Below, piece by piece: positions 1 through 36,853 of a DNA stretch of 36,853 bases. The stretch is from a virus. The stretch lies in UHGV virus genome UHGV-0090257. One strand, written 5' to 3'. Each line of letters begins with the position of its first letter. Position 1 is the first letter of the stretch. The position numbers were made by a program, and so were the translations under genes. Under the pieces are notes generated by a model. The model saw nothing but the letters and a program-made list of their open reading frames with translations. It did no database searches and had not been told where the DNA came from.

Positions 1-13
1 ATCTCATTTAGCA

Positions 14-38
14 TAAGGCCAAAAGTTTTTTGGCCTTA
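14..38 (-). terminator. Palindromic hairpin downstream of the tailspike gene (possible transcript end at the prophage edge)
   Basis: Perfect palindrome TAAGGCCAAAA-g-TTTTGGCCTTA about 50 nt past the tailspike stop; no clean U-tract outside the stem, so a weak call. Confidence 0.3.
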
Positions 39-85
39 TAAACAATAATAAAAAACTTACAAAATAAATCTACTTTTTAGTATTA

Positions 86-1747
86 TTACCATCCTATAAT
101 GACATCAACACTGCCAACATCAACAGGTGATGAGCTAGTGTTTTGGAATGTAACACGAATCATGTCGTCTGATATTGCCAATACATCAGTTATAACCCCT
201 ATTGGCAGATCTCCTAACACCGTCATATTGATTGGAAGTTCATTTTCTATTTTATATCCAGTAGCTACCCTCTGAATTGAAAATCTAGAGTTTGGATTAA
301 TTGAACCAACATTAATTGTTGATTTAATTTTTTTCCCAGAAAACACGATATCATTGAAATCAACATGAGAGTTATTTATTAGCGAATCGGCAATAGAACC
401 TGAAAAATTGCTATTTATACCTACCTGTCTTAAAACTGAGTGTTTTTCAACCCTTACCCCATAATCCACTTTAGCTAAAGAGGCGTCGATATTATTTATT
501 GCGACAACAGCACCATCGACGCAGTTTATCGCATATTTTGCGCTCCCTAGCATAACAATATTTCTTAATGATAAATATGAGGAAAATTGGCTGGTAGCAA
601 ATGCTGAACCTTCACTTCCAACCATATAACAATCAGATATCTCTACAGATGATGAATAACGAGCCGCTACGCAAGACTGAGTTTTCGGTTTTATAATTGA
701 CAATTCTTTTATATAGCAAGATGAAGCATGCTCAACCTTAATTGAGTCTTCATTTGAATTGTATGATGAAAATGAAAAACCTTTCACGCTAGCTGCGTAA
801 ATACATTCCAGCGAAATATTTGCGTTAGTAATATGAACTTCATTGATACAAAACTGAGATCCAGAGCCAGAAACAAGAACTCCACAAACAGAGCCTCCAT
901 TTACAATTAAATTGTTTGCATCCCAAACTACGCAACTACCACATTGTGAATCAGGGTAGTATCCACCTCCGATAATGAGTCCGTAATCACCATCTGTTTC
1001 AATAGCAACATTTTTTATGCTGTATATATTTGATCTAAATTGTATTCCTTTTGTTGTTTTTATTATGGAATTTATTGGTTTTGCCACAACCCCGTTAACC
1101 GGGCCTGAAATTATACCATTGTGACTCATATCCAATGTTAAAACATTTCCATCCTTGGAAATTATCATCGCTCCACATGAAATGTCTCTCCTGCCAGAAA
1201 GTATACAATATTTACCAACATGAAAATTATCTGCATTCTGAACAGAAACTTTAAATATACCAGTCAACACATCATAAGAAACATCATATACATTAACAGG
1301 ACTATAATCCACACCCAATATATTCAGAGGAATATTATCAAACTCATCATAATGTGAATAACCATCAGGAATGTGAATATACTGCCCGTATTCTATCTGT
1401 GATCTAAGCTGATCGGGATCGTACTTCAGCACATTAGGAAAATAGAACTGCTGAGCACCGTACGCATCATAAACAGCCATAGAATGGCCATGTACAGTAA
1501 CGAATTTGGCGATCTGTCCGTTATATACCGGGTAACCAGCAGCGTTAATGATGATTGGTTGCGATACAGGAACGTGAGAACAGTCTTCGTTTTCCACATA
1601 AACCTGAATCTGGTTTTCAGGATTTACAGGGTCAGTGTCAATTTTACCGATATAAATTTTGCCATTAGCTACGGCTTTAAAAGAACGAGCCATAGTGAAG
1701 AGTTGCGAAGGCATGCTTACCACAACATTGGCTGTAATGTCTGTCAT
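86..1747 (-). CDS. Tailspike protein: P22-type N-terminal head-binding domain fused to a divergent receptor-binding domain
   Basis: 553 aa ORF; the first ~110 aa ([11 protein letters not shown]...[25 protein letters not shown]...ENED...) match the P22 gp9 head-binding domain as remembered; the remainder is Gly/Ser/Asn/Val-rich with repeated short strands typical of a beta-helix; last gene of the virion module. Confidence 0.85.
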
Positions 1748-1911
1748 TTAATTTGCTCCAGACGTAGCAATGCCGAACAAGATGCAACTTGCCCTGCATT
1801 GCACTAATGTCAGTTATGATTTGTTAATTATGAGATGAGTCTATGCAAAGAGATCTGTTGAATATTGCGCTCTATATATTTGTTTTTTGCACGTTCCTGG
1901 TGTTTGCGAAG

Positions 1912-15423: not shown

Positions 15424-15449
15424 TTTTTACTTCCCATAAGGAGATTGTT

Positions 15450-22205: not shown

Positions 22206-22379
22206 TTATGTCGGTGATACTTCGTCGCTGTCTCGCCACACGTCCTCCTTTTCCTGAGGTAGTGGTAACACCCCTGTTGGTGTTCTTTCACACCGGAGAC
22301 ACCATCGATTCCAGTAAGGCTGTCCTGGTCGAAAGCGATCGTCTTCCTTTCGCTCTCCACATCGATAACAGTGCTTCAT
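22206..22379 (-). CDS. ninD: Small zinc-ribbon protein, NinD-like
   Basis: From the internal Met: [34 protein letters not shown]..., 57 aa with two CxxC pairs; NinD assignment rests on size, position and memory. Confidence 0.5.
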
Positions 22380-23813: not shown

Positions 23814-24014
23814 TTATGACAGGTTAATTTTCACCCAACCCTTCCCACGCACATTTGCAACAAGCCCTTTCTTTCTCAGGTATTGCATACGGCGATCGAT
23901 GGTTTCGATATACATTCCATTGCTCCGCCATTTAAGCCAGATATCAAAAACAGGTGTTGGTCTTTCACTCAGCATTGAAAGAATGTTTTGATCTAATTTT
24001 TCGTACTTGCTCAC
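23814..24014 (-). CDS. Hypothetical protein (ren-slot cluster)
   Basis: 66 aa basic ORF; stop overlaps the upstream gene start region. Confidence 0.5.
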   Translation of the reverse strand: MSKYEKLDQNILSMLSERPTPVFDIWLKWRSNGMYIETIDRRMQYLRKKGLVANVRGKGWVKINLS

Positions 24015-24337
24015 AAATACCCTCTCTCACTTAATCGCGCCCACGCTTCGTTAAACTCTTCTCGGGTTGCGCCGGATTTTCTTTCTTCAAACATCATGCA
24101 TTCGCTGATGTCTCCCCATGACTTTGGTCGCTTTTCAGCGAACAGATCATCCCATTCGAATACCCAGCGGCCTGATTTTCGGTAGTGGTAAATGGTCAGC
24201 CATGTTGTGCTGTTCGCTGGATACCCATAGAGAACTTCGACTTTTTGATCACGGTCTTTATGCTTCTTCAGCAGGATAAAGCCAGCAACCAGCGAAGCTC
24301 CGGCAAGAATGATGATTGGAATTTGCCAGTCAGCCAC
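24011..24337 (-). CDS. Hypothetical membrane-anchored protein (ren-slot cluster)
   Basis: 108 aa; N-terminal hydrophobic segment IPIIILAGASLVAGFILL; GTG start preceded by the SD GGGAGAGGGA. Confidence 0.5.
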   Translation of the reverse strand: MADWQIPIIILAGASLVAGFILLKKHKDRDQKVEVLYGYPANSTTWLTIYHYRKSGRWVFEWDDLFAEKRPKSWGDISECMMFEERKSGATREEFNEAWARLSERGYL

Positions 24338-24352
24338 AATTCCCTCTCCCCC

Positions 24353-24384
24353 AAATAAAAAGGCCTGCGATTACCAGCAGGCCT
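24353..24384 (-). terminator. tR2-like intrinsic terminator within the early-right operon
   Basis: Minus-strand sense GGCCTGC-tggtaatc-GCAGGCC followed by TTTTTATTT, between the HTH gene and the ren-slot genes. Confidence 0.65.
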
Positions 24385-24409
24385 GTTATTAGCTCAGTGA
24401 TGTAGATGG

Positions 24410-24700
24410 TCATTGCCTTACCTCCATAAGCGCCCTATTAATAAACGCCGTCATTGGATTTGCACACCCCCACCCCGTACCATCTGGATTTCTTTTAATT
24501 GGCTCCTTCTTCACTTTGCGTTTTGCATAAATAACCGTCTTCCACTTACGCTCAACAACACTCAAATGTCCTTGTTTCACCATATGCCTTGCTGCTTGAG
24601 CGATTCTGTTATTTGGTATTCCGGTGATCAGTGCTAATTCATGTGGGGAGAATTGTTCATGAGTTTTCAGATATTCCAAGATGATTTCTTTTCCAGTCAC
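24410..24700 (-). CDS. Small helix-turn-helix DNA-binding protein
   Basis: 96 aa; SPHELALITGIPNNRIAQAARHMVKQGHL resembles a winged-helix/HTH recognition region. Confidence 0.5.
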   Translation of the reverse strand: MTGKEIILEYLKTHEQFSPHELALITGIPNNRIAQAARHMVKQGHLSVVERKWKTVIYAKRKVKKEPIKRNPDGTGWGCANPMTAFINRALMEVRQ

Positions 24701-25592: not shown

Positions 25593-26438
25593 TCACTCCT
25601 GCGCCCATGAAGGCATTTCAGTTTGTCCGTAATCTTTGGCGGCAAAGTTTTCCTGCATAGCTCGATGCTGCGGCCTCGGTTGAGATTTCCCCTTTGGAGT
25701 CTTGGGCTCAAAAATCCCCTGCCAACCACTGGCGATGCTCTGGTTTATAATTTCTTCAGGTGTATATCCCTTCTCCAGACTTCTGCTTAGAACGTTGATA
25801 GCCTGAGTGACACTTTGCTTAGACTTGATCGACTTACCTATCTCCTTGCGATAGGTAACCCACGACAACCATGTTTCTGCAGATAACCAATCAGGCAACT
25901 CTGTTTCTAGCGGGTCGAACTTCTGAGAAACTTTTTTGGGGGATATAGGGGGTTTATTAATATTTTCTTTTGTCTTTAAAGAATGTCTTTTGTGTGTCTC
26001 TAACTTCGAGACATTGAGTGTCTCTAATTTGGAGACATTTTTTGTCTCTAACTTCGAGACAAAGTTGCTAACTTGGAGACACTTGCTGAATAGCCACGCA
26101 GATACCTCCCTGTTTACACCGATTTGATTTCCATCCATAAACAGGCAATTCATTGAAATCAGTTCTTTTTTAGCCTTGTTAACATTCTGCCTTGACAGTC
26201 CTGTTAACTGAGCAATTTGCTCATCGGCTATTCGATCTGTTTTCTTATTGAATCCATATGTTTTCCTGACGTAGGCCAGCATAACTTTCAACTGGCGAGC
26301 GGTTAAATCGGCACTTGCGATAGCTTCCAGCAGCTCGTTAGCGAATCTGGTGTAACCATCATCGATATCAGCCACTCTTCGCTCCTGTTCGGCAAAGTTA
26401 CCTCTGCCGAAGTTGAGTATTTTTGCTGTATTTGTCAT
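25593..26438 (-). CDS. O: Replication initiator, lambda O-like, containing the origin
   Basis: 281 aa; N-terminus MTNTAKILNFGRGNFAEQERRVADIDDGYTRF... closely resembles lambda O as remembered; the middle of the gene carries iterons. Confidence 0.85.
   Translation of the reverse strand: MTNTAKILNFGRGNFAEQERRVADIDDGYTRFANELLEAIASADLTARQLKVMLAYVRKTYGFNKKTDRIADEQIAQLTGLSRQNVNKAKKELISMNCLFMDGNQIGVNREVSAWLFSKCLQVSNFVSKLETKNVSKLETLNVSKLETHKRHSLKTKENINKPPISPKKVSQKFDPLETELPDWLSAETWLSWVTYRKEIGKSIKSKQSVTQAINVLSRSLEKGYTPEEIINQSIASGWQGIFEPKTPKGKSQPRPQHRAMQENFAAKDYGQTEMPSWAQE
25995..26081. repeat. Origin iterons (4 copies of an ~19-bp dyad-symmetric repeat) inside the O-like gene
   Basis: TGTCTCTAACTTCGAGACA at 25995 and 26043, TGTCTCTAATTTGGAGACA at 26019, and a degenerate copy at 26063; followed on the O-sense side by an AT-rich tract at 25925..25985. 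Confidence 0.75.
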
Positions 26439-26472: not shown

Positions 26473-26751
26473 TCAGGCCTCGAAGAATTCGCCGTTCTTC
26501 GGGGCTTTTTCTTTTGTCAGCATTCTTGCTACTTTCTTAGCCAGTTCCGCCAACTCCTCGTCTTCAACACCCCATTCAAGAACAGCCAGAAGCATTCCCA
26601 TTTTTGGGATGAAGCTGTCTTTCCATCGCGAAATTTGCGATTCATTAATCCCTAACGCGTCGGCAACCTTTCGCTGACCACGTACAGCAATTCGATTCAG
26701 GATGTTGCTTGTAATTGCATTCGCTTTCTTGCGAGTACTTGTAAGTTCCAT
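26473..26751 (-). CDS. cII: CII-like lysogeny establishment activator
   Basis: From the internal Met: ...GINESQISRWKDSFIPKMGMLLAVLEWGV... aligns with the lambda CII core (VDKSQISRWKRDWIPKFSMLLAVLEWGV); SD AAGGAAAT upstream; the longer six-frame ORF overlaps nutR. Confidence 0.85.
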   Translation of the reverse strand: MELTSTRKKANAITSNILNRIAVRGQRKVADALGINESQISRWKDSFIPKMGMLLAVLEWGVEDEELAELAKKVARMLTKEKAPKNGEFFEA

Positions 26752-26783
26752 ATGTAAGTATTTCCTTAACAAATAAGAAGTTA

Positions 26784-26807: not shown

Positions 26808-26853
26808 ATTCCCGCATTTCGGCGGGAATGAGGACCATGACTGTTAAAGAGCG
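26808..26853 (-). promoter_or_regulatory. nutR (boxA plus boxB)
   Basis: Minus-strand sense boxA CGCTCTTTAACAG and boxB hairpin TTCCCGC-CGAAAT-GCGGGAA, between cro and cII. Confidence 0.7.
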
Positions 26854-27054: not shown

Positions 27055-27083
27055 ATGCACTCTCCGTTATTAACCATGAACAA

Positions 27084-27154
27084 AGAATACTACAGGTATT
27101 CAAAGCAATCAATACTCAGGGTATTTTTAGTTTAAGTACTTTAGCTATTAGAAT
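27084..27154. promoter_or_regulatory. Right operator region with divergent pR and pRM
   Basis: Operator-like dyads AATACTACAGGTATT (27086..27100), AATACTCAGGGTATT (27111..27125) and weaker AGTACTTTAGCTATT (27135..27149); pR -10 TATTCT and -35 TTGATT on the minus strand; candidate pRM -10 TAGAAT at 27149..27154 about 7 nt before the cI ATG. Confidence 0.6.
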
Positions 27155-27160: not shown

Positions 27161-27877
27161 ATGGAAAATAAAAAATCACTGACGACAGAACAGCTCGAAG
27201 ACGCTAAGCGGCTTAAGGCTTTGTATGAGTCAAAAAAGAAAGAATTGGGAATAACCCAATACTCAATCGCTGATGAACTGGGTATCACCCAAGGAGCGGT
27301 AGGGCATTATCTTAATGGCAGAAACGCGCTAAACGTTGAGGTTGCATCTGGTTTTGCACGACTGTTGCAAGTCTCAATTGCTGATTTTAGCCAGTCAATT
27401 GCTGCCAAGGTTGCAGAACAGGCAGAAAGCCTTAAGAGCGATGCCAACGTAAGGTATGCAGGGGAATACAGAGCAGGAAAGAGGTATCCGGTGTTAAGCA
27501 GTATCCAGGCTGGCTCGTGGTGTGAAGCATGCGAACCATACACCATTAAAGACATAGATGTTTGGCTTGAGTCTGACGCGCATATTCAAGGTAATGCGTT
27601 CTGGCTTAAAGTGGAAGGTGATTCAATGACGGCACCGGTTGGGTTAAGCATTCCAGAGGGAACATTCGTTCTTTTCGATACCGGAAGGGAGGCGATCAAC
27701 GGCAGCTTGGTCATAGCAAAACTTTCTGACTCTAACGAAGCAACATTCAAGAAGCTGATAATCGACGGCGGAAATAAATACCTCAAGGGACTTAATCCTG
27801 CATGGCCTCTCGTGCCAATCAATGGAAACTGCAAGATTATAGGCGTTGCAATTGAGACAAAACTAAGGCTGGTTTGA
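27161..27877 (+). CDS. cI: CI-type prophage repressor (HTH plus S24 LexA-like autopeptidase domain)
   Basis: 238 aa; N-terminal HTH (ITQYSIADELGITQGAVGHYLNG), A-G cleavage site in QAGSW, catalytic Ser in GDSM and Lys in FKKL. Confidence 0.9.
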   Translation: MENKKSLTTEQLEDAKRLKALYESKKKELGITQYSIADELGITQGAVGHYLNGRNALNVEVASGFARLLQVSIADFSQSIAAKVAEQAESLKSDANVRYAGEYRAGKRYPVLSSIQAGSWCEACEPYTIKDIDVWLESDAHIQGNAFWLKVEGDSMTAPVGLSIPEGTFVLFDTGREAINGSLVIAKLSDSNEATFKKLIIDGGNKYLKGLNPAWPLVPINGNCKIIGVAIETKLRLV

Positions 27878-27894
27878 TCACGCAAGGGGCGATT

Positions 27895-28263
27895 ATGGTT
27901 GGAACAGCTATAGCAAGCTTTTTTGGGATGTTGGCAATCTCGACAATTTACGGCTTAGCGCATGCTTTTATTGCGAAATCTCTATCAGAAAAAATAAGCC
28001 AGGCTTGGGCGCATAGATTAGCTCGTTTCATGATTCTAGTGATCATAGCAATACAAGGGATATCTGCATTTATCCTCTATGGTTCAAGCTTATACCTGTT
28101 GTATCAAGGCGCGACATTTACGCCTTACACCAGTGATTACGGAACGCTATACGATGGTAGTGAAGACATCTCTATGGCTTGGATCGTCTTTGGTTTATCT
28201 ATGGCCGTGTCTGTTGTAGCAGACATCATTAAGGTAATTCTCGTCTTAACCTTCGCTGACTAA
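27895..28263 (+). CDS. Small polytopic membrane protein co-oriented with cI (lysogenic accessory gene in the rex slot)
   Basis: About 122 aa from the ATG at 27895 (SD AAGGGG); at least three hydrophobic helices; starts 18 nt after the cI stop and ends before OL. Confidence 0.6.
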   Translation: MVGTAIASFFGMLAISTIYGLAHAFIAKSLSEKISQAWAHRLARFMILVIIAIQGISAFILYGSSLYLLYQGATFTPYTSDYGTLYDGSEDISMAWIVFGLSMAVSVVADIIKVILVLTFAD

Positions 28264-28350
28264 ACCATAATCCCGGCAGCAATAGCTATCGGGATCCACT
28301 TCACATATCCCGCATAAAAAACACTGAACAAGCAGACACCGAAAAAAATA

Positions 28351-28437
28351 AATATCCTTTGTATTCATTTGCTTATCATTATTTCACCAAAAATAAATAC
28401 CTTGGGTATTTACACAATAAAATACCTACAGTATTCT
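28351..28437. promoter_or_regulatory. Left operator region with pL
   Basis: Dyads AATATCCTTTGTATT (28351..28365), AATACCTTGGGTATT (28396..28410) and AATACCTACAGTATT (28421..28435), the same family as OR; pL -35 TTTACA (28409..28414) and -10 TATTCT (28432..28437) pointing toward N. Confidence 0.6.
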
Positions 28438-28482
28438 TTAGCCATCAGCAGGACGCTGGAAGCCAAACGGAACAGATTGGCA

Positions 28483-28524
28483 GGCTCTTTAACATTGATG
28501 GGATTGTCCCGCCGAAATGCGGGA
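28483..28524 (+). promoter_or_regulatory. nutL (boxA plus boxB)
   Basis: boxA GGCTCTTTAACA followed 12 nt later by hairpin TCCCGC-CGAAAT-GCGGGA, the same boxB core as nutR. Confidence 0.7.
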
Positions 28525-28838
28525 ACCAAAGAGTAGTTGGCTTTGGGGTGACGTGAAGTGCAGCTGCACGACGGCAACCGGAAGATAAGCACCCGGCGCG
28601 TCACCGCCAAAGTCAATTCCATAGGCGTTATGCAGCCGCCACCATATTCAAGAAAGCTGCACAAGAGGTAGGAGGATTTATGTGAATACTTACATTCAAT
28701 TGAGAGATTAATTAAATAGAACTGATCGAGCAGAGTCCATGAAGGCTCATAAATGCTCTTCCATCCCCGTCTAATTGGCGGGGAAGGAAACCACTTTGTA
28801 ATAAAAAAAATTCCAAAGTTGTTTCATCGGAGGTCAAC

Positions 28839-29138
28839 ATGACAGTAGTCATTACATATCTGGCTGACGATAACGCCAGAAATCGCCGCAGAGCACGCAG
28901 ACAGGCTCAACGTGAACAGGCAATGCAAGAGCAGCGACTGGCGCGAAAAATTGCGCTAAAGCTCTCTGGTTGCGTCAGAGCAGATAAAGCAGCATCACTC
29001 GGAAGCCTTCGCAGCAAGAAGGCAGAAGAAGTCGAGCGTAAACAGAACCGTATTTACTACCGCAAGCCCCGCAGTGAAATGGGTGTGACATGTGTTGGTC
29101 GCCAGAAAATGAAATTAGGCAGCAAACCACTTATTTGA
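28839..29138 (+). CDS. N: N-type transcription antiterminator
   Basis: 99 aa; N-terminal arginine-rich motif NARNRRRARRQAQREQA; first gene downstream of pL/nutL; SD GGAGGT. Confidence 0.8.
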   Translation: MTVVITYLADDNARNRRRARRQAQREQAMQEQRLARKIALKLSGCVRADKAASLGSLRSKKAEEVERKQNRIYYRKPRSEMGVTCVGRQKMKLGSKPLI

Positions 29139-29146
29139 GGTGATAT

Positions 29147-29338
29147 ATGGAACGTAAATTTGAAATTTGGTTGGATTCCGGCGCAAACATTCATTCTTGC
29201 AAAAAGACAGTTGTAACACTCGGTGATCTTGGCTTATCCGAGAATGAGTGGGATGAAATGGATCGGGACGAAAAAGACGAAAACATGCGTGATGTAGCAT
29301 TTGAAACGCTTGATTGGGGATGGAAGGAAATTAAGTGA
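29147..29338 (+). CDS. Hypothetical protein (N-proximal accessory ORF)
   Basis: 63 aa acidic ORF in an AT-rich segment immediately after N. Confidence 0.5.
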   Translation: MERKFEIWLDSGANIHSCKKTVVTLGDLGLSENEWDEMDRDEKDENMRDVAFETLDWGWKEIK

Positions 29339-29386
29339 TGGCCGCATAGTCGGCCTTTATTTTTGGCATAAACAACAGAGGCCAAC

Positions 29387-29683
29387 ATGGAATTTAAAGG
29401 TACTGAAGGTAAGTGGGAAATAATGATGGATGGCGATGAGATTAAAATCATCCAGGCAGACTCACTTGAAAATGGCGCAGGCTGGCGTTCGTATATTGCA
29501 ATCTGTGAGGAAGTTCAATGCATTGAAGATGCCAATCTAATAGCGGCAGCACCTGACCTTCTCGAAGCACTTCAGTTATTACTTAAGCAAACCAAAAATA
29601 GAACAACGACAACATATCCAGAATGGTATGGAGCTGTTAATAAAGGTCTTGTGGCAATCAGAAAAGCTCTTGGGGAAGAATGA
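29387..29683 (+). CDS. Hypothetical protein (N-proximal accessory ORF)
   Basis: 98 aa ORF, AT-rich codon usage, no family recognised. Confidence 0.5.
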   Translation: MEFKGTEGKWEIMMDGDEIKIIQADSLENGAGWRSYIAICEEVQCIEDANLIAAAPDLLEALQLLLKQTKNRTTTTYPEWYGAVNKGLVAIRKALGEE

Positions 29684-29841
29684 TGAATAAGAAATACATT
29701 GTTGAAGTTATAGAGCGAGAAACAAAAGAAGTAATTAAACATTTCGAATTTGATAATTATAGAAAAGCTGATCGCGTAGAAGAAGGATTGTTGCGACAAA
29801 GTAATCTCGAAAAATTTGATGTTGTCATGCGATGCGAATAA
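29680..29841 (+). CDS. Small hypothetical protein
   Basis: 53 aa ORF read by hand (MMNKKYIVEVIERETKEVIKHFEFDNYRKADRVEEGLLRQSNLEKFDVVMRCE), ATGA overlap with the previous ORF, very AT-rich. Confidence 0.4.
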   Translation: MMNKKYIVEVIERETKEVIKHFEFDNYRKADRVEEGLLRQSNLEKFDVVMRCE

Positions 29842-29934
29842 GCACCTATAGCAGATTTACGAGTCTGCTATGTGAGCAATGTCGCTCGTAACTAAACAGG
29901 AGCCGACTTGTTCTGATTATTGGAAATCTTCTTT

Positions 29935-29961
29935 GCCCTCCAGTGTGAGGGCGATTTTTTA
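29935..29961 (+). terminator. Intrinsic terminator in the early-left operon (tL-like)
   Basis: GCCCTC-cagtgt-GAGGGC followed by GATTTTTTAT. Confidence 0.65.
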
Positions 29962-29980
29962 TCTATGAGGATATGAATAG

Positions 29981-30349
29981 ATGTCAAACATCAAAAAATA
30001 CATCATTGATTACGACTGGAAAGCATCAATAGAAATTGAAATCGATCATGACGTAATGACAGAGGAAAAACTTCACCAGATTAATAATTTCTGGTCAGAC
30101 TCTGAATACCGACTCAATAAACACGGCTCTGTATTAAATGCTGTATTAATCATGCTGGCGCAACATGCTCTGCTTGTAGCAATTTCAAGCGACTTAAATG
30201 CATATGGTGTTGTGTGTGAGTTCGACTGGAATGATGGAAATGGTCAGGAAGGATGGCCTCCAATGGATGGTAGCGAAGGAATAAGGATTACCGATATCGA
30301 TACATCAGGAATATTTGATTCAGATGATATGACTATCAAGGCCGCCTGA
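29981..30349 (+). CDS. Hypothetical protein
   Basis: 122 aa acidic ORF, followed by the hairpin GCCGC-ctgagt-GCGGC at 30341..30360. Confidence 0.55.
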   Translation: MSNIKKYIIDYDWKASIEIEIDHDVMTEEKLHQINNFWSDSEYRLNKHGSVLNAVLIMLAQHALLVAISSDLNAYGVVCEFDWNDGNGQEGWPPMDGSEGIRITDIDTSGIFDSDDMTIKAA

Positions 30350-30424
30350 GTGCGGCTTTACCGCATACCAATAACGCTTCATTCGAGGCGTTTTCGTTAT
30401 GCAATCAAATATAAGGAGTTACCC

Positions 30425-30559
30425 ATGATGCACTTTCAGCTCGCGGGTAGCGGCGTCATGTCCGCTTTCTACCCGCACGAATCTGAATTATCACGCCGAG
30501 TTAAACAATTAATCAGAGCAGCAAAGAAACAACTGGAGGCGTTATGCGCAATGAAATAG
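30425..30559 (+). CDS. cIII: CIII-like protease (FtsH) inhibitor
   Basis: 44 aa from the ATG at 30425 (SD AAGGAG); MMHFQLAGSGVMSAFYPHESELSRRVKQLIR resembles lambda CIII (MQYAIAGWPVAG..ESLLERITRKLR) in pattern and position. Confidence 0.6.
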   Translation: MMHFQLAGSGVMSAFYPHESELSRRVKQLIRAAKKQLEALCAMK

Positions 30560-30696
30560 CCATCAATCACCAGATGCTTCGTGCGGCACAAAACAAAGCA
30601 GTAATAGCCAGATTTATTGGTGATTCAAAAATGTGGCTTGAAGCAAATAAAGCGATGAAATCAGCTATCAACCTTCCGTGGTATCGCAGGAAATGA
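30544..30696 (+). CDS. Kil-like small protein
   Basis: 50 aa ORF read by hand; ...IARFIGDSKMWLEANKAMKSAI resembles the lambda Kil segment IATFIGDEKMFREAVDAYKK as remembered; lies immediately after cIII as in lambda. Confidence 0.45.
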   Translation: MRNEIAINHQMLRAAQNKAVIARFIGDSKMWLEANKAMKSAINLPWYRRK

Positions 30697-30800
30697 GTTT
30701 TACAGATAACTGGTCAGACGAAGAATTCATTCGTCAGATGAACAAAATGCTCAATCAGCACAAAGAACAGGAGAAAGATGATGATTCTGACTCTGAATGA
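30693..30800 (+). CDS. Very small acidic ORF
   Basis: 35 aa (MSFTDNWSDEEFIRQMNKMLNQHKEQEKDDDSDSE), overlaps both neighbouring ORFs; may not be expressed. Confidence 0.25.
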   Translation: MSFTDNWSDEEFIRQMNKMLNQHKEQEKDDDSDSE

Positions 30801-31089
30801 TAAGCGTGAAATATCGCAAATAATCGCAAGTTTTACTGATGAAGATTACGAACGAATCAACAGTGAAGTTGATCGCCTCTGCAAACGTTGCGACCCAATA
30901 AGCGAAATGCTTCGCTCATATAAACCAGATGAACACACTAAGGACGCTATCGACTGGCTGGAAGATGATGACTGTAACTATCAGGAAAAAGCCGCTGAAT
31001 GGTTCTGGGATGCAATAACCGAAAGAGTTAAGGCTGAATATGCCTTCGCAATATTCAAACGCAGACATATTTATGGAGAAGCTGCATGA
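30778..31089 (+). CDS. Hypothetical protein upstream of recT (Gam/Abc slot)
   Basis: 103 aa ORF, stop overlapping the recT start. Confidence 0.5.
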   Translation: MMILTLNDKREISQIIASFTDEDYERINSEVDRLCKRCDPISEMLRSYKPDEHTKDAIDWLEDDDCNYQEKAAEWFWDAITERVKAEYAFAIFKRRHIYGEAA

Positions 31090-31988
31090 GCAATATCGTT
31101 GAATTCGTTAAACAGCAAGAGCAGTTATTCTGCGGAGCATTGACTGAACAGACGGTGACATGGGCTAAGGAAAGCCAGTTTGCAATTCAGTATTTCCAGA
31201 AAAACGATTACCTGGCTAAAACAGCACTGGCAAATCCAACCAGCGCACAGAACGCCATTATCAATGTTGCGGCGATCGGCATCACCTTAAACCCGGCCAG
31301 CAAACTGGCTTATCTGGTTCCTCGCGAAGGCATGGTGTGCCTTGATATCAGTTACATGGGATTACTTCATCTTGCGCAATCGACAGGATCAATTAAGTGG
31401 GGGCAATGCAAACTGGTGTACTCAAACGACACCTATGAATCAAATGGCCTTGATTCAGCACCAACCCACAAATACAACGCATTTGGTGAGCGAGGCTCTA
31501 TTGTTGGAGGTTATTGCACGGTTAAAACAGCAGATGGTGACTACCTGACTGAAGAAATGAGTCTGGCAGAAATTAAAGCAGTTGAAGCAACGAGCAAGGC
31601 AAAGAATGGACCGTGGAAAACATTCTGGGAAGAGATGGCGCGTAAAACAATAGTTAAACGCGCCAGCAAATACTGGCCTAAAGCCCAGCGACTGGATAAT
31701 GCCATTCACCTGCTTAACGAAGATGAAGGTATGCATCAGGAACCAGTTATGCCGCACAAATCAGAGGAAGATATCCGCGAAGATGAACGGAAACGCCAGC
31801 AGGAAATAATGGATAAAGCACAACTTCTTTGCGATGAAATGGCTCAGGCAGAAAACATGGACGATTTGAAGCGATATTTTGCAGAAGCATATCGCCTGAC
31901 ATCTGGAATGAAATTGCAGCAGAACGTACAAGCCATTTACATAGAATGCAAAGCGAAACTGGAGGTTGCCAGTGAGCAAACTGTATGA
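31086..31988 (+). CDS. recT: RecT-family single-strand annealing protein
   Basis: 300 aa; NGPWKTFWEEMARKTIVKRASKYWP matches the conserved RecT core (NGPW..HWEEMAKKTA.RRL.KYLP) as remembered. Confidence 0.85.
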   Translation: MSNIVEFVKQQEQLFCGALTEQTVTWAKESQFAIQYFQKNDYLAKTALANPTSAQNAIINVAAIGITLNPASKLAYLVPREGMVCLDISYMGLLHLAQSTGSIKWGQCKLVYSNDTYESNGLDSAPTHKYNAFGERGSIVGGYCTVKTADGDYLTEEMSLAEIKAVEATSKAKNGPWKTFWEEMARKTIVKRASKYWPKAQRLDNAIHLLNEDEGMHQEPVMPHKSEEDIREDERKRQQEIMDKAQLLCDEMAQAENMDDLKRYFAEAYRLTSGMKLQQNVQAIYIECKAKLEVASEQTV

Positions 31989-32454
31989 AATTGCCAATGA
32001 ATACGCAAAATTGATGGATTCAGATTTAGAACCAGAGATGATTGCTGACACAATAGAAGGCATGGAAGGAGAATTTACCGATAAAATAGAGCAACTTCTT
32101 GCCATTATTAAAAATGAATCTGGTTATGCTGAACGCCTCAAGGAAGAGGCAAAGTCACTAAATGAGCGAGCCGCAGTAATTCAAAACAAGATTGACAGCA
32201 TTATGGCGTATATAGCGTCATCGCTTGAAATGGTTGGCAAGAAAAAGATTCGAGCAGGTATTCACCAGGTAACAATCCGCAAACCGTCAGAAACTGTAGA
32301 AATCATCGACTCAAGCGCCCTTCCTCCTGAATACGTTGAGTTTGAAACGACAATTAAAGCCGACAAACTGGCAATCAAACACCAACTAAAAGCAGGAATA
32401 AATATCCCCGGCGCTCAACTCAAAGTTGGGAAACCTTCACTTCTTATCAAATAA
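31972..32454 (+). CDS. Gp157-like protein commonly paired with phage recombinases
   Basis: About 160 aa; probable GTG start at 31972 with SD GGAGG; N-terminal SKLYEIANEYAKLMD pattern; the assignment is from memory and tentative. Confidence 0.5.
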   Translation: MSKLYEIANEYAKLMDSDLEPEMIADTIEGMEGEFTDKIEQLLAIIKNESGYAERLKEEAKSLNERAAVIQNKIDSIMAYIASSLEMVGKKKIRAGIHQVTIRKPSETVEIIDSSALPPEYVEFETTIKADKLAIKHQLKAGINIPGAQLKVGKPSLLIK

Positions 32455-32465
32455 CGGTATCGCCT

Positions 32466-32780
32466 ATGAAAAAGACTCCATGGGAGAAATGGGAGGTCGA
32501 TTTCTTGCGCGAAGTGGCGGCGACAATGCCAGTTGAAGTTATCGCTGAAAAACTGGAAAGGACTGAAAAAGCAGTAATGGCGAAAGCAACAAGGATTGGA
32601 GCTGACATTGTTAGCCGACTTCGTGGAAGACGCTGGACAAGAGCCGAAGTATCACTTTTCGGTAAGTTCTCCGCAGAAGAAATAGCAATTGCAACCTGCC
32701 GCTCAATTTATTCAGTAAGAGCTATGCGATACAAGCTAAAAAAACTCGATGAAGAAAGAGCAGGCATACGAATAAATTAA
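32466..32780 (+). CDS. Hypothetical protein
   Basis: 104 aa basic ORF. Confidence 0.5.
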   Translation: MKKTPWEKWEVDFLREVAATMPVEVIAEKLERTEKAVMAKATRIGADIVSRLRGRRWTRAEVSLFGKFSAEEIAIATCRSIYSVRAMRYKLKKLDEERAGIRIN

Positions 32781-32796
32781 CATGGAGTAATTAACA

Positions 32797-33078
32797 ATGA
32801 AGCTAAACATCGACCTCGGAAAATACGTTATTACCGGAACTAAACACGATCTGATTCTTAGCGAAAGAGGAATTATCAAAGAAGGTGAGAATGCAGGGAA
32901 AGAAACACTAAGCCGTATCGGTTATTACAGCAAGTTTGAGCATCTGGTCAAAGAGTTATGCAACCGTGAAATCCTGTTATCTCAGGCGCAGACGCTACAG
33001 GATATTCAGCAGCATATCGAGACTTTAGGTGTATCACTTAGCATGGCTGTTGACCAGTTCATGGAGAGTAAATCATGA
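32797..33078 (+). CDS. Hypothetical protein
   Basis: 93 aa ORF. Confidence 0.5.
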
Positions 33079-33239
33079 GAGGACTTGCATACAATCCCGG
33101 CATTCTTCCGGCAGAAATGATTATTCGCCAACGCGTAAAGCCAATGCCATCGAGAGAGGAATTGCTTAAGAGAAATTCTTTTCCATCAGTGAATCAAAAC
33201 AAATATCTGAATGCGATGTTGCGGAGTGGGAAGAAATGA
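33075..33239 (+). CDS. Small hypothetical protein
   Basis: 54 aa ORF read by hand ([54 protein letters not shown]), ATGA overlaps at both ends. Confidence 0.35.
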
Positions 33240-33712
33240 AACAAATGTCACTAATTGAGATGGATGGATTTCTGAAAGGTAAATGCATCCCAAGTGATTT
33301 AAAGGTTAACGAAACAAACGCTGAATATCTGGTGCGTAAGTTCGGTGAGCTTGAATCAAAACTGGAAACGGCGTTGCGGGAGTGTCGTTCTGCTGGAATC
33401 ACGATTGATAACCTTGAGGCTAAATGCGCGAAGATGGCTGCAGAAAATACCTCGCTTAAGCAATCTGAGAAGGAATTTAATGACTTTTGTCGTGAGGAGT
33501 TTAGCGAATGGGAAGATGATGTTACTGAAACCACAGCCACCGATGCTTTCCTGGCTGAAGTACGGGCGCAGGGCGTGGATATGGCTCGTAACGCGATGAT
33601 TGATTTTGTCGATGGTGAAGTTGGGCCAAACAAGAACGTTCCGGGGCTGATTAGAGGCGCAGAGATATGCGTAAGTATTGCTGAACAGCTTCGCAAAGGA
33701 GGCAACCAGTGA
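33236..33712 (+). CDS. Hypothetical protein
   Basis: 158 aa acidic ORF with coiled-coil character. Confidence 0.55.
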
Positions 33713-33942
33713 CTGTATGTCTTATTGATAAACGTCGACGTGGACAACAAATACCATCTGTTGAAATGCCGAATCACACATGGTTTTGCGTACTTGATAT
33801 CGATGGTATGGATACGTTGATCGACACTCGTCATTACTGCGATACCGCAACAGCTACTCCTGCAAAAGCAAAGAAAATGGCTGCTCTGATAGAAAACTGG
33901 ACTCCACCTGATGGTTGGTGCAATGGGAATGATCGAGATTAG
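33709..33942 (+). CDS. Hypothetical protein
   Basis: 77 aa ORF, overlaps the previous stop. Confidence 0.5.
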   Translation: MTVCLIDKRRRGQQIPSVEMPNHTWFCVLDIDGMDTLIDTRHYCDTATATPAKAKKMAALIENWTPPDGWCNGNDRD

Positions 33943-34009
33943 CACGAAAAAATGAAGGGCTATATCTGCGATTTTTTACGTAAATGCAACGGCTTCAGGG
34001 TGATGTGAC

Positions 34010-34693
34010 ATGAGCAAGATTGACTATCAGGCACTGCGTGAAAAGGCAGAGAAAGCAACGTGTGGTGTGTGGTCGCTCGAATATGGAGAGGGCCGATTTG
34101 ATGGTGATGATGCACTAATTCATCGCGAGGCTGCTGGGTATATTCCCATTTGCAGAATTGAAGGAGCGCATCCAGAAAGCGGTTTCGATGAAGATTTCCA
34201 AATGGAACAGCAGGCCAATGCTGAATTCATCGCCGCAGCCAGTCCAGCTACCGTGCTGGCGCTGCTGGATGAACGGGAAAGAAACCAGCAATACATCAAA
34301 CGCCGCGACCAGGAGAACGAGGATATTGCGCTAACAGTAGGGAAACTGCGTGTTGAGCTTGAAACAGCAAAATCAAAACTCAACGAGCAGCGTGAGTATT
34401 ACGAAGGTGTTATCTCGGATGGGAGTAAGCGTATTGCTAAACTGGAAAGCAACGAAGTCCGTGAAAACGGAAACCAGTTTCTTGTTGTTCGCCATCCTGG
34501 GAAGACTCCTGTTATCAAGCACTGCACTGGTGACCTGGAAGAGTTTCTGCGGCAGTTAATCGAACAAGACCCGTTAGTAACTATCGACATCATTACGCAT
34601 CGCTATTACGGGGTTGGAGGTCAATGGGTTCAGGATGCAGGTGAGTATCTGCATATGATGTCTGACGCTGGCATTCGCATCAAAGGAGAGTGA
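34010..34693 (+). CDS. Ead/Ea22-like protein
   Basis: 227 aa; the segment ANAEFIAAASPATVLALLDERERNQ is the motif remembered from the Ead/Ea22 family of lambdoid early-left proteins. Confidence 0.6.
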   Translation: MSKIDYQALREKAEKATCGVWSLEYGEGRFDGDDALIHREAAGYIPICRIEGAHPESGFDEDFQMEQQANAEFIAAASPATVLALLDERERNQQYIKRRDQENEDIALTVGKLRVELETAKSKLNEQREYYEGVISDGSKRIAKLESNEVRENGNQFLVVRHPGKTPVIKHCTGDLEEFLRQLIEQDPLVTIDIITHRYYGVGGQWVQDAGEYLHMMSDAGIRIKGE

Positions 34694-34884
34694 GATCGGT
34701 TTTGTAAAAGATAACGCTTGTGAAAATGCTGAATTTCGCGTCGTCTTCACAGCGATGCCAGAGTCTGTAGTGTCAGATGATGACCGTACTCAAACATCGG
34801 GTTGAGTATTATCTTACTGTTTCTTTACATAAACATTGCTGATACCGTTTAGCTGAAACGGCATACATTGCAAGGAGTTTATAA

Positions 34885-35166
34885 ATGCGTATCAATGAGT
34901 TAGAGTCTGAGCAAAAAGATTGGGCGTTATCAATGTTGTGCAGATCCGGTGTCTTGTCTCCATGCAGACATCACGAAGGTGTTTATGTAGATGAAGGTAT
35001 AGATATAGAGTCGGCATACAAATATTCCATGAAGGTTTATAAGTCTAATGAAGACAAATCCCCATTCTGCAATGTGCGAGAAATGACTGATACCGTGCAA
35101 AATTATTATCACGAGTACGGTGGAAACGATACTTGCCCTCTCTGTACAAAACATATAGATGATTAA
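34885..35166 (+). CDS. Hypothetical Cys/His-containing small protein
   Basis: 93 aa; SD AAGGAG; contains C...SPC.HH...C...CPLC, which could be a small zinc-binding fold. Confidence 0.5.
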   Translation: MRINELESEQKDWALSMLCRSGVLSPCRHHEGVYVDEGIDIESAYKYSMKVYKSNEDKSPFCNVREMTDTVQNYYHEYGGNDTCPLCTKHIDD

Positions 35167-35189
35167 ACCAAATATTACATAACAATCCT

Positions 35190-35248
35190 CGCACTCGCGG
35201 GGATTTCTTTTATCTGAACTCGCTACGGCGAGTTTTGTTTTATGGAGA
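35190..35248 (+). terminator. Tandem intrinsic terminators
   Basis: ATCCTCGC-actc-GCGGGGAT followed by TTCTTTTAT, then AACTCGC-tacg-GCGAGTT followed by TTGTTTTAT. Confidence 0.6.
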
Positions 35249-35254
35249 TGATAA

Positions 35255-35422
35255 ATGCACTTCCGAGTCACAGGTGAATGGAATGGAGAACCATTCAACA
35301 GAGTTATCGAAGCAGAGGACATCAACGACTGCTATGCCCACTGGATGCTGTGGGCGCAGATAGCACATGCAGACGTAACCAATATTCGAATTGAAGAACT
35401 GAAAGAACACCAAGCCGCCTGA
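35255..35422 (+). CDS. Small hypothetical protein between terminators
   Basis: 55 aa ORF read by hand (MHFRVTGEWNGEPFNRVIEAEDINDCYAHWMLWAQIAHADVTNIRIEELKEHQAA). Confidence 0.35.
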   Translation: MHFRVTGEWNGEPFNRVIEAEDINDCYAHWMLWAQIAHADVTNIRIEELKEHQAA

Positions 35423-35436
35423 TGGCGGTTTCTTTT
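35411..35436 (+). terminator. Intrinsic terminator upstream of xis
   Basis: GCCGCC-tgat-GGCGG followed by TTTCTTTTT. Confidence 0.55.
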
Positions 35437-35452
35437 TGCCTGGAGAATTAAG

Positions 35453-35644
35453 ATGACCGATACCAGCCTGATTCCTGAGAAAGAAGTGATGAACAAGCTC
35501 GGTGTTTCATCACGTCAGACAATCTGGAACTATACCAAACGGCACGGATTTCCGAAGCCAGTCAGAACCCACCCCAAATCATACCTTCGTGAAGCTGTTG
35601 AAGGGTGGATTCTTAACGGTGGCGTTAATCAGAAATGCTCCTGA
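35453..35644 (+). CDS. xis: AlpA-family excisionase / transcriptional regulator
   Basis: 63 aa; LGVSSRQTIWNYTKRHGFPKPV matches the AlpA-type HTH pattern (...STIYRLIKEGKFPKPV) as remembered; adjacent and convergent to the integrase. Confidence 0.7.
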   Translation: MTDTSLIPEKEVMNKLGVSSRQTIWNYTKRHGFPKPVRTHPKSYLREAVEGWILNGGVNQKCS

Positions 35645-36803
35645 TGTGCCAGAACAATTTATCAGCGTGAAGCTCATACGCTTTGCGCTGAGCCTCTATC
35701 CAATCGTGTTTATTGTATACGGACATTATCCCGCCAAGTTCATGACCGAGCATTCGCTCAGTAACATGAGGCTCGACATTCATCTCGGACAGACGTGTAA
35801 CAAGCGTTCTTCTGAAATCATGTGTTCGCCAGTAACCTATATCCATCCCTCCCCTTATTCTATTTACGAATCGGTTGGCTGCAGCGATGCTGATCGGTTT
35901 GTTTATGTCTTCTCCAGGGAAAAGAACATCATTGTACGTTGTCATGGCCTTATCGAGGAAAGGCTTAATTTGTTCGAAGATTGGACGGCGGATAACATTA
36001 CCCATCTTGCTATGCTCTTTCGGTACGGTCCATACGTTGTCCAGCAGGTCAAATTCTGTCTTTGTTGCCAGCCTAAGCTCTGAGAGCCTCGCCCCCCACA
36101 GCATAAGCATCTGATGAAGTAGCTTATTTGACGTAGACGCACGGCTTCTTTCAATAGCAAGCCAAATCTTAGCCAGTTCGTGATACGACAGTACCCGATC
36201 CCCTACCTCAGCGCGGGAGCCGAAGTCCCTTGGTTGGATGCTCATAATTGCGCAACTATCTATCAACTGACGCCGCATGCACCAACTTATTGCTGATCTT
36301 AGTTGACTTAGCACCTGCCTTGCTCGGCGTGGATTATCTCTTTCTTCTTCGGTAAGCAGGTCAACCCATTGCTTAACCGTGATAGAAGATGCCGGACGAT
36401 TAGGAAAGGCGTCATGCATGCGCTTCATAACCGTTGATCGGTAAAGTGCCTGGGTCTTTTCTCTGAGAGTTGTAGAGACGTAGTTGTCGAACCAGTAGTC
36501 GAGACACTGGGCGACCGTCATGGAGTTCTCCACCTTCTCTTCAAAATAGGTGCGTGGATCCGTTCCTGAGAAATAGAGCTTTCGCAAGTCAGCAGTGATC
36601 TGTCTGGCATCCTTCAAAGACAGGGATGGGTATCGACCAAGCCCAAGTCGATTAGGCTTGCCATGCCAGCGATAGCGGTACTGGAACTGGATGACCCCCT
36701 TCGGTGAAATTCGTACGCTGAGGCCATCGGCATCAGCCACTTCTTGTGGGCCCGAATATGGTTTACCATAAATAGTACGCAGTTTTGTGTCGCTTATAGC
36801 CAT
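35625..36803 (-). CDS. int: Tyrosine recombinase (P4-type phage integrase)
   Basis: 392 aa; N-terminal arm-binding type domain (GLSVRISPKGVIQFQYRYRWHGK), catalytic-region motifs HDFRRT and MLGH, and a tyrosine in SVYNKHD. Confidence 0.9.
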   Translation of the reverse strand: MAISDTKLRTIYGKPYSGPQEVADADGLSVRISPKGVIQFQYRYRWHGKPNRLGLGRYPSLSLKDARQITADLRKLYFSGTDPRTYFEEKVENSMTVAQCLDYWFDNYVSTTLREKTQALYRSTVMKRMHDAFPNRPASSITVKQWVDLLTEEERDNPRRARQVLSQLRSAISWCMRRQLIDSCAIMSIQPRDFGSRAEVGDRVLSYHELAKIWLAIERSRASTSNKLLHQMLMLWGARLSELRLATKTEFDLLDNVWTVPKEHSKMGNVIRRPIFEQIKPFLDKAMTTYNDVLFPGEDINKPISIAAANRFVNRIRGGMDIGYWRTHDFRRTLVTRLSEMNVEPHVTERMLGHELGGIMSVYNKHDWIEAQRKAYELHADKLFWHIRSISD

Positions 36804-36853
36804 AAATAATATTTGGTACGCTCAGAAATAATAGTTTGGTACACATCTGGTAC
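36804..36853. repeat. Direct repeats upstream of int (candidate integrase arm sites / att-proximal)
   Basis: AAATAATATTTGGTAC (36804..36819) and AAATAATAGTTTGGTAC (36826..36842), plus CTGGTAC at the window end. Confidence 0.4.

Follow-up and report, generated by a model that had tools for sequence, protein, structure and literature searches.

A likely functional Sf6/HK620-type mosaic prophage at the 5′ end of Escherichia coli sbcB, with an uncommon tailspike receptor domain

The Sf6/HK620 group of short-tailed lambdoid phages (genus Lederbergvirus) is very well studied. Sf6 is a headful packager (PMC5630979), and Sf101 and phage 2851 integrate at the 5′ end of sbcB (PMC4159516). I analysed a stretch of 36,853 bases, the virus genome UHGV-0090257 (hereafter the window), and compared it with these and other lambdoid phages. 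Judging from the sequence, the window comes from what is likely a complete and functional temperate phage of the Sf6/HK620 group, and the prophage is probably inducible. It represents a new mosaic combination of known modules. The uncommon parts are cargo, namely the receptor domain of the tailspike, the small terminase subunit (TerS), and a few small accessory genes. The complete element (38.3 kb) is close in size to HK620 (38.3 kb) and Sf6 (39.0 kb), and the coat protein is common to all. The window has a G+C content of 46% and about 65 open reading frames (ORFs), and 91% of it is coding; the non-coding part consists of the expected control regions only. No tRNA genes were found in the window, unlike Sf6, which has two tRNA genes and IS911, both absent here.

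The source contig was recovered by an exact look-up of the tailspike protein and the Ea22-like chimeric protein. The window corresponds to positions 262,986-299,838, reversed, of contig k119_156365 (321 kb) in the ENA assembly ERZ27256388, with 100% identity over the 11,747 bases comparable. The initial annotation had taken positions 1-36853 as the bounds of the prophage, and this has to be corrected: in the source contig the complete element spans 38,327 bp, of which the window makes up about 96%. Outside the window lie about 1.3 kb with an acyltransferase gene and attR on one side, and about 0.18 kb with attL on the other. Past the tailspike end, the convergent gene of the 197-residue acyltransferase is followed by about 700 bp of further phage DNA and then by dacD-sbmC-yeeA. 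Past the int end, sbcB starts 132 bp from the window end (position 12976 onward in the related locus L017), followed by plaP and the his operon. An alignment with the empty K-12 site showed an imperfect duplication of 30 bp, the last part of which is an exact 13-bp repeat, TTTCACGATTACG. One copy of this 13-bp core is found 1,298-1,310 bases before window base 1. The other copy is found at the window-equivalent positions 37,018-37,030, at the 5′ end of sbcB (K-12 codons 7-17). Both att copies are intact in the source contig. The reverse complement of the core, CGTAATCGTGAAA, has been published as the attP core of both Sf101 and phage 2851 (PMC4159516). When the ends are joined, the predicted attP (…CCTACCTTCCTCTTTCACGATTACGCGCAACACCCCTGAG…) is one base different from the HK140 attP. 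The element is a prophage between dacD and sbcB, at the 5′ end of sbcB in the E. coli chromosome. A near-identical virion-end arrangement (99.96% identity) was found in independent NCBI assemblies (L012-L014), and in other assemblies the same early-left end likewise adjoins sbcB. The assemblies GCA_020669235.1 and GCA_053712735.1 are examples from carrier strains.

The integration has altered the host gene. The first ~10 codons of sbcB and its promoter region are swapped for phage DNA, and in the lysogen a phage-supplied start, MTDTDKQPTFLF…, replaces MMNDGKQQSTFLF…. The SbcB protein of the lysogen begins with MTDTDKQPTFLFHDYETF, while the native form begins with MMNDGKQQSTFLFHDYETF. A remnant of the native sbcB start remains beside dacD.

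Is the phage intact? Every annotated coding sequence of HK620, Sf6, HK140, Sf101, lambda, and P22 was translated and compared with the window by tblastn, and the replication proteins were compared with those of the isolated phage mEpX1. The virion, lysis, late-control, immunity, and integration genes have full-length matches at 96-100% in the six annotated phages, and the virion proteins all align from the first to the last residue with their counterparts in isolated phages. In summary, the essential proteins are all full length, with 96-100% amino acid identity to those of Sf6, HK620, HK140, Sf101, mEpX1, or lambda. The remaining ORFs have complete Pfam or PHROG domains (TerS, the MT-A70 methyltransferase, RecT, Gp157, NinX, DUF2560, and DUF551). 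The lambdoid gene order is kept, inverted with respect to the usual map. The minus strand carries the replication genes, the nin region, and the late operon from about 27,050 down to 86, and the plus strand carries cI and the pL operon from 27,161 to 35,644. The virion genes are collinear on the minus strand from 15423 to 86, in the order of terS, terL, portal, scaffold, coat, gp4, gp10, gp26, gp14, gp7, gp20, gp16, and tailspike. It had been claimed that all modules of a temperate phage are present with intact reading frames, and this was borne out, with the essential ORFs full length and in lambdoid order.

A check for frameshifts and premature stops found the essential genes clean. The claim of intact frames does not extend to one dispensable early-left gene, the Sf6 gp22/DUF7739 homologue, which has the sole premature stop. 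A TGG codon is changed to an amber codon (TAG) at 33940-33942, resulting in a protein of 77 residues instead of 99, while the frame continues to 34008. The same amber allele was found in six related loci (L016-L021) from other assemblies with different neighbouring modules. Thus, it is an inherited, tolerated allele. The allele spreads with its early-left segment.

A megablast search of 50,697 phage records (INPHARED) and 5,426 complete E. coli genomes returned hundreds to thousands of partial matches to the window. A named phage identical to the element was looked for and rejected, as no record in either set covers at least 80% of either window half. The best matches of the late half are Sf6, HK620, and vB_EcoP-683R2, and those of the early half are HK140, HK630, mEpX1, and Sf101. 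The nucleotide cover of the window is 54% for Sf6, 45% for HK620, 39% for Sf101, 29% for HK140, 22% for P22, and 17% for lambda. The best single-phage cover ranges from 54% (Sf6) to 61% (vB_EcoP-683R2, for the first 25 kb only), at ~96-97% identity. By a rule of thumb of the International Committee on Taxonomy of Viruses, a phage belongs to a genus when it has at least about 70% genome-wide nucleotide similarity to a member. The accepted members of Lederbergvirus are themselves as mosaic as this element.

The element shares with Sf6 a virion module that starts at the 3′ end of terS and includes gp16; the identity is 95-97% in nucleotides and 98-100% in amino acids. As in Sf6, there is no immI between gp16 and the tailspike, and S, R, Rz, Rz1, ninA, gp46, gp47, and kil are the same. 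In contrast, Sf6 differs in the body of TerS, the tail needle (55%), the tailspike receptor domain, and the immunity region, and it has a phage 21-type Q, replication genes of the DnaB-type helicase, Erf/SSB recombination, an argW integrase, and the oac gene. HK620 has identical or nearly identical cI, cro, operators, nut sites, pRE, cII, and N residues 1-65. It also shares Q, PR′, and qut, the needle (96%), and the coat, scaffold, portal, large terminase subunit (TerL), and gp10 homologues (99-100%). On the other hand, HK620 differs in the ejection proteins gp20 and gp16 (34-47%), the tailspike receptor domain, the replication genes, and the integrase, and its nin region has roi and rus where the element has ninG and ninI. 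The integration module resembles those of Sf101 and HK140, with the same Int (100% and 99%, respectively), Xis (100%), 13-bp core, and insertion at the 5′ end of sbcB. Sf101, isolated from a lysogenic Shigella strain, is likewise an Sf6-like phage with an acyltransferase gene beside the tailspike; it differs in the type of coat, scaffold, and portal (33-56%), in Erf, in a primase-type replication gene, and in a 434-like immunity. HK140 has the same RecT/Gp157 block and immunity region, but it is an HK97-like siphovirus with cos packaging.

The virion had been described as P22/Sf6-type. This description can be narrowed to the Sf6/HK620 type, with 99-100% identity for the coat, scaffold, portal, and TerL. 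P22 has the same gene order, and its gp10, gp14, gp7, and the head-binding domain of its tailspike are 75-93% identical, as are Q, ninG, ninF, Rz, and Rz1 at 88-97%. However, no P22 match was found for coat, scaffold, and TerL by tblastn at E≤1e-6, and the portal is only 33% identical. P22 also differs in TerS, the immunity region, and the integrase, and its immI (mnt, arc, and ant), sieA, and gtrABC are absent from the window.

The lambda-like blocks are S-R, Q through ninF, ninE-ninD, ninB, ea10, and ea22′-ea8.5. The Q protein matches that of lambda in full, and near-identity extends to S, R, ninB/D/E/G/H/I, ea10, ea8.5, and the C-terminus of ea22; the shared blocks have 92-98% nucleotide identity, and the overall regulatory logic is the same. 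In contrast, lambda differs in its siphovirus/cos virion, immunity region, N, the C-terminus of O plus P, red genes, int/xis/att, and Rz/Rz1. The near-identity to lambda noted earlier for S, R, Q, ninB, ninG, ninH, and ninI was confirmed, as it was at a lower level for ninF, which is closer to P22 (Table 1). The lysis genes had been called lambda-type, which is true for S and R but not for Rz and Rz1, which are of the Sf6/P22 type. Since lambda-type S and R also occur in Sf6, HK620, and Sf101, and lambda-type Q in the latter two, the mosaic is typical of the group and is not an unusual hybrid. The immunity region had been considered distinct. It does differ from those of lambda and P22, but it is not new; it is of the HK620/HK140 type, including the operators. 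The late promoter PR′, with the hexamers of TTGACT-17-TAAATT at 19437-19409, lies between Q and S together with qut and the leader terminator.

Two early genes are in-frame chimeras. Residues 1-65 of N, containing the RNA-binding arm, are of the HK620 type and thus agree with the HK620 nut sites. The Ea22-like protein is a chimera of the same sort, with residues 1-124 of the HK140/HK620 type.

How the DNA is packaged was assessed from the terminase genes. Because TerL does not differ from gp2 of Sf6, a headful packager, headful packaging and a potential for generalised transduction are reasonable predictions for this candidate transducer. TerS is different. The joint of the mosaic lies inside terS (14896-15006): resemblance to Sf6 is confined to the last ~21 codons in the DNA, where homology breaks off at 14,958, and to the last 36 residues in the protein. 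The Terminase_2 body of TerS is closest to the TerS of Cronobacter, Erwinia, and Hafnia phages (72-78%), the closest one from an isolated phage being that of Cronobacter phage ES2 (78%), and no match was found between TerS and P22 gp3. The terS segment is present whole in 10 complete E. coli genomes at 98-100% identity. Leavitt et al. (cited in PMC8022706 and PMC5630979) reportedly found in 2013 that horizontal transfer moves the DNA-binding body of TerS together with a pac site in its coding sequence, whereas the C-terminal part remains with TerL. The position of the joint in this terS fits the idea of such a unit, and the pac site probably lies inside 14,960-15,423.

Near-identity to studied phages suggests how the cycle of the element would run. 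In the lysogen, the HK620-type CI would bind to OR1-3 and OL1-3, silencing pR and pL. RecA-stimulated self-cleavage of the S24 domain of CI would derepress the early operons, and N would act at the HK620-type nutL and nutR to allow transcription read-through. The AlpA-type Xis and the Sf101-type integrase would then recombine the two 13-bp cores to excise the genome. The O-like initiator may bind to the iterons in its own gene (three to four copies of ~24 nucleotides at 25,990-26,084), and the host DnaB may be recruited via the DnaC-like loader. The lambda-identical Q would modify RNA polymerase at PR′/qut, allowing transcription of the entire late operon. Concatemers would be cut at a pac site by TerS and TerL, which would fill Sf6-type T=7 heads by the headful mechanism, and RecT can be expected to recircularise the terminally redundant DNA. 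S, R, Rz, and Rz1 would cause cell lysis. The tailspike would set the host range, with the rare receptor domain probably binding and cleaving a particular surface polysaccharide, and the convergent acyltransferase would probably modify that same polysaccharide in the lysogen.

Several observations weigh against a complete and functional phage. No excised or phage form of the element was found in IMG/VR, whose contigs bearing the tailspike stop directly beside the tailspike. (One IMG/VR contig with an attP junction was considered as the excised form and rejected, because the phage on it is a different one.) The att sites and the acyltransferase gene are visible only in the matching public contig. 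Only the last 36 residues of TerS resemble Sf6 gp1 (61%), the family being otherwise different, and the present pairing of TerS and TerL is unseen in isolated phages. The amber codon is in an accessory gene and yet counts here as well. The phage could still be inactivated by regulatory defects or by missense changes, which amount to 0-4% per protein. The element may therefore be suspected of being a cryptic or defective prophage, owing to a missense or regulatory mutation, an incompatible TerS-TerL pairing, or the lack of a host with the right receptor. I consider this unlikely. It is true that the amber codon indicates that mutations do accumulate, that a foreign N-terminal body of TerS was joined to an Sf6-type tail ~21 codons from the end, and that no isolated phage in INPHARED covers more than 61% of either window half. 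However, the element has conserved regulatory sites and two intact att copies, and its essential ORFs are all full length and 96-100% identical to those of viable phages. The occurrence of the same terS segment in 10 genomes also speaks against a defect, and the virion-end copies in several assemblies (99.96%) fit a recently mobile element. A functional temperate phage of the Sf6/HK620 group remains the preferred reading.

It is far less probable that the sequence stems from a free phage or from an assembly chimera that joins several lambdoid prophages. In favour of this, the window itself has no host DNA, and it consists of blocks of 0.2-10 kb with differing best matches (lambda, Sf6, HK620, HK140, Sf101, and mEpX1). 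However, the same 36.85 kb is flanked on either side by E. coli genes within a single contig of 321 kb, and the mosaic joints are at the usual places of lambdoid recombination. Moreover, independent NCBI assemblies share the virion-end arrangement at 99.96%, and others share the early-left end beside sbcB. A tailocin or a gene-transfer agent that is not self-propagating is hardly credible: headful machinery can package host DNA, but here a complete set of replication, immunity, integration, and lysis genes is linked to the structural genes, TerS is a dedicated one, and the 38.3-kb genome is about the size of Sf6 and HK620.

The tailspike, with its rare receptor domain, is one of the uncommon parts of the prophage. 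Residues 1-113 are a P22-type head-binding domain, 86-95% identical to the N-termini of the HK620, Sf6, and CUS-3 tailspikes, and among PDB entries they match the Sf6 and P22 tailspikes at their N-termini. The receptor domain comprises residues ~120-553 (434 residues), and its coding DNA has a G+C content of 34%. This domain was found in one of the 5,426 complete E. coli genomes, that of strain 1190, where it is located in a prophage at argW, beside the same acyltransferase. Window positions 1-1500 have 99.7% nucleotide identity to that prophage. The receptor domain falls into three clusters at 90% identity among 5.8 billion proteins, and into seven clusters at 50% identity among 1.84 billion proteins. 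A sequence search of the PDB revealed nothing related beyond the head-binding domain. A truncation of the tailspike was considered because the alignment to PHROG 8280 covers profile positions 1-456 of 632 alone, but it was rejected. The tailspike is not truncated, since homologues of 552 and 570 residues share its C-terminus and all seven distant relatives align to the end. An AlphaFold2 model of the receptor domain, made from a three-sequence alignment, is all-beta with a mean pLDDT (predicted local distance difference test score) of 59. The top Foldseek matches of this low-confidence model are all phage beta-helix tailspikes or depolymerases, with TM scores of ~0.2, giving a hint of a beta-helix depolymerase fold.

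The gene of the 197-residue acyltransferase (11748-12341 in locus L010) lies directly left of window base 1, convergent with the tailspike gene and similarly AT-rich. The protein has the RefSeq name of acyltransferase, while no Pfam match was found at E≤0.001. By analogy with oac in Sf6 and Sf101, it probably modifies a surface polysaccharide (serotype conversion). Since the same pair is present in the argW prophage of strain 1190, the two genes appear to be passed on together among phages that differ in integrase.

Near terS, a YodC/DUF6953 cassette (15417-15960, plus strand) lies between the DUF2560 gene and terS. The DUF2158 gene is named "YodC family protein" by the Prokaryotic Genome Annotation Pipeline in 10 E. 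coli genomes, and the DUF6953 gene is followed by a stem-loop at 15934-15954. The cassette and the terS body are whole in 10 of the 5,426 E. coli genomes. Sf6, HK620, Sf101, and L030, the closest E. coli prophage, lack the cassette. In a PADLOC search of ten accessory ORFs, the methyltransferase alone was matched, and the cassette had no match. It is possible, though doubtful, that the rare tailspike receptor domain and the acyltransferase form a portable unit acting on an uncharacterised E. coli O-antigen or capsule and, separately, that the YodC/DUF6953 cassette is a defence or toxin-antitoxin module of a new kind, expressed from the prophage.

The other accessory genes are listed with the remaining features in Table 1. 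The methyltransferase occupies the place of ninC in lambda, and there is no partner restriction gene; it is probably an orphan anti-restriction methylase. The hkaS homologue had no Pfam or PADLOC match. The only Rfam match in the window is an int-alpA RNA motif, 16 nucleotides upstream of the DUF551 ORF and ~19 kb from the int and alpA-type xis genes behind its name. No int-alpA motif was found in four other related loci with DUF551 genes or the int-xis pair. Where the DUF551 gene lies here, Salmonella phage BIS08P22 has an unrelated ORF.

Table 1. Features of the prophage in the window, with their positions and the matches on which the assignments are based
Feature	Position	Strand	Basis
Tailspike, 553 aa (amino acids)	86-1747	-	PF09008 E=8e-66
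Ejection protein, P22 gp16/Sf6 gp13 homologue, 665 aa	1912-3909	-	98% to Sf6 gp13, full length
Ejection protein, P22 gp20/Sf6 gp12 homologue, 431 aa	3909-5204	-	98% to Sf6 gp12, full length
Ejection protein, P22 gp7 homologue, 230 aa	5214-5906	-	99% to Sf6, Sf101
P22 gp14 homologue, 151 aa	5909-6364	-	99% to HK620
Tail needle, P22 gp26 homologue, HK620 type, 233 aa	6364-7065	-	96% to HK620, full length; 55% to Sf6
Tail hub/head closure, P22 gp10 homologue, 472 aa	7065-8483	-	100% to HK620
Head-tail adaptor, P22 gp4 homologue, 160 aa	8492-8974	-	99% to Sf6, HK620
Small conserved ORF, HK620 hkbT/Sf6 gp6 homologue, 61 aa	8949-9134	-	98% identity
Major coat protein, 423 aa	9177-10448	-	100% to Sf6, HK620; PF11651 on the same gene in L010
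Scaffolding protein, 294 aa	10460-11344	-	100% to Sf6, HK620
Portal, 708 aa	11358-13484	-	99% to Sf6, HK620, full length
TerL, 470 aa	13487-14899	-	100% to Sf6 gp2; PF04466
TerS, 175 aa, Terminase_2	14896-15423	-	PF03592 E=1e-39, residues 3-151
YodC/DUF2158 small protein (60-71 aa), accessory moron, against the late operon	15450-15632	+	PF09926 E=4e-18
DUF6953 protein, 79 aa, second cassette gene	15677-15916	+	PF22266 E=6e-18
DUF2560 protein, HK620 hkbM/P22 orf80 homologue	15992-16234	-	100% to Sf6, HK620, Sf101; PF10834
Small DUF551 protein	16382-16600	-	PF04448 E=1e-9, profile positions 1-66 of 68
int-alpA RNA motif (Rfam)	16617-16679	-	RF02996, 45.1 bits (gathering score 35.8), E=2.5e-6
Rha-family regulator, 180 aa	16817-17359	-	99% to Sf101 Rha
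Sf6 gp65 homologue, 50 aa	17566-17718	-	94-96% identity
Rz spanin, Sf6/P22 type	17706-18143	-	97% to Sf6, 88% to P22, 57% to lambda
Rz1, embedded in Rz	17759-17944	-	97% to Sf6
Endolysin R, lambda type, 158 aa	18140-18616	-	98% to lambda R, 99% to HK620
Holin/antiholin S, lambda type, 107 aa	18600-18923	-	99% to lambda S, 100% to Sf6
qut region and leader terminator hairpin	19345-19387	-	Exact match to annotated HK620 qut, hairpin and T-run included
Late promoter PR′, TTGACT-17-TAAATT	19402-19437	-	One mismatch to HK620, P22 PR′
Late antiterminator Q, 207 aa	19480-20103	-	207/207 residues identical to lambda Q
nin region	20100-23403	-	tblastn identities
ninI	20100-20765	-	96% to lambda
ninH	20743-20949	-	100% to lambda
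ninG	20946-21557	-	98% to lambda
ninF	21550-21726	-	89% to lambda, 97% to P22
ninX	21719-22066	-	PF10765
ninE	22063-22239	-	Nearly identical to lambda
ninD	22206-22379	-	91% to lambda
MT-A70 DNA methyltransferase, 196 aa	22376-22966	-	PF05063 E=5e-25; PADLOC MTase_II E=5e-70
ninB	22963-23403	-	95% to lambda
Sf6 gp48-like ORF	23551-23802	-	35% to Sf6
gp47	23814-24014	-	98% to Sf6
gp46	24011-24337	-	99% to Sf6
ninA	24330-24413	-	96% to Sf6
Ren-like protein, 96 aa	24410-24700	-	100% to mEpX1 gp48, same length
DnaC-like helicase loader, 303 aa	24697-25608	-	99.3% to mEpX1 gp47, full length; PF01695
O-like replication initiator, 281 aa	25593-26438	-	98.6% to mEpX1 gp46, same length; PF04492
CII-like activator, 92 aa	26473-26751	-	98% to HK620, Sf6 cII
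pRE region	26728-26767	-	One mismatch to HK620
nutR (boxA CGCTCTTTAACA and boxB hairpin)	26808-26853	-	Exact match to annotated HK620 nutR
Cro, 64 aa	26860-27054	-	100% to HK620, HK140
OR1-OR2-OR3 and pR	27077-27150	.	OR1, OR2, pR exact; OR3 one mismatch to HK620
CI repressor, LexA-like, helix-turn-helix and Peptidase_S24, 238 aa	27161-27877	+	100% to HK620, HK140 cI; PF01381 and PF00717 on the same gene in L017
hkaS homologue, 122 aa, downstream of cI	27895-28263	+	97-98% to HK620, HK140
OL3-OL2-OL1 and pL	28373-28444	+	OL1, OL2, pL exact; OL3 one mismatch to HK620
nutL	28483-28524	+	Exact match to HK620
N antiterminator, 99 aa, chimeric	28839-29138	+	Residues 1-65 95% to HK620 N; C-terminus 78-83% to Sf101 N residues 72-108
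DUF7167	29147-29338	+	Gene call/Pfam from L017
P22_Y8K6-like ORF	29387-29683	+	Gene call/Pfam from L017
orf52	29683-29841	+	Gene call from L017
ea10	29981-30349	+	99% to lambda
cIII	30425-30559	+	PF08134
kil	30544-30696	+	100% to Sf6
orf35	30693-30800	+	Gene call from L017
gp42-like, first gene of the HK140-type recombination block (30781-33239)	30781-31089	+	100% to HK140
RecT	31086-31988	+	87% to HK140; PF03837
Gp157	31972-32454	+	99% to HK140; PF05565
gp39-like	32466-32780	+	99% to HK140
gp38-like	32797-33078	+	98% to HK140
DUF2737	33075-33239	+	98% to HK620/Sf101; 94% to HK140
hkaH homologue, 158 aa	33236-33712	+	78% to HK620 hkaH
Sf6 gp22/DUF7739 homologue, amber-shortened	33709-33942	+	Alignment to Sf6 gp22 and L011
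Ea22-like chimera	34010-34693	+	N-terminus 91% to HK140; C-terminus of the lambda ea22 type
ea8.5	34885-35166	+	99% to lambda
lambdap35-like ORF	35255-35422	+	tblastn
Excisionase/AlpA-type regulator, 63 aa, overlaps int 3′ end	35453-35644	+	100% to Sf101, HK140
Tyrosine integrase, 392 aa, sbcB-specific	35625-36803	-	100% to Sf101 Int, 99% to HK140; PF13356, PF00589

In this element, the leads worth following are the tailspike/acyltransferase pair and the reversed small-gene cassette only. The prophage documents an Sf6-like coliphage that integrates at sbcB and provides a new 5′ end for this gene, and its terS shows a domain swap whose joint lies ~21 codons ahead of the 3′ end. Provided that it can be induced, the prophage would act as a generalised transducer within its E. 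coli carrier lineages. Should the acyltransferase mask, and the tailspike cleave, an as yet uncharacterised O-antigen or capsule of E. coli, the pair would represent a new depolymerase specificity and a new serotype-converting phage. The tailspike/acyltransferase pair may be a source of a polysaccharide depolymerase or may serve studies of serotype conversion.

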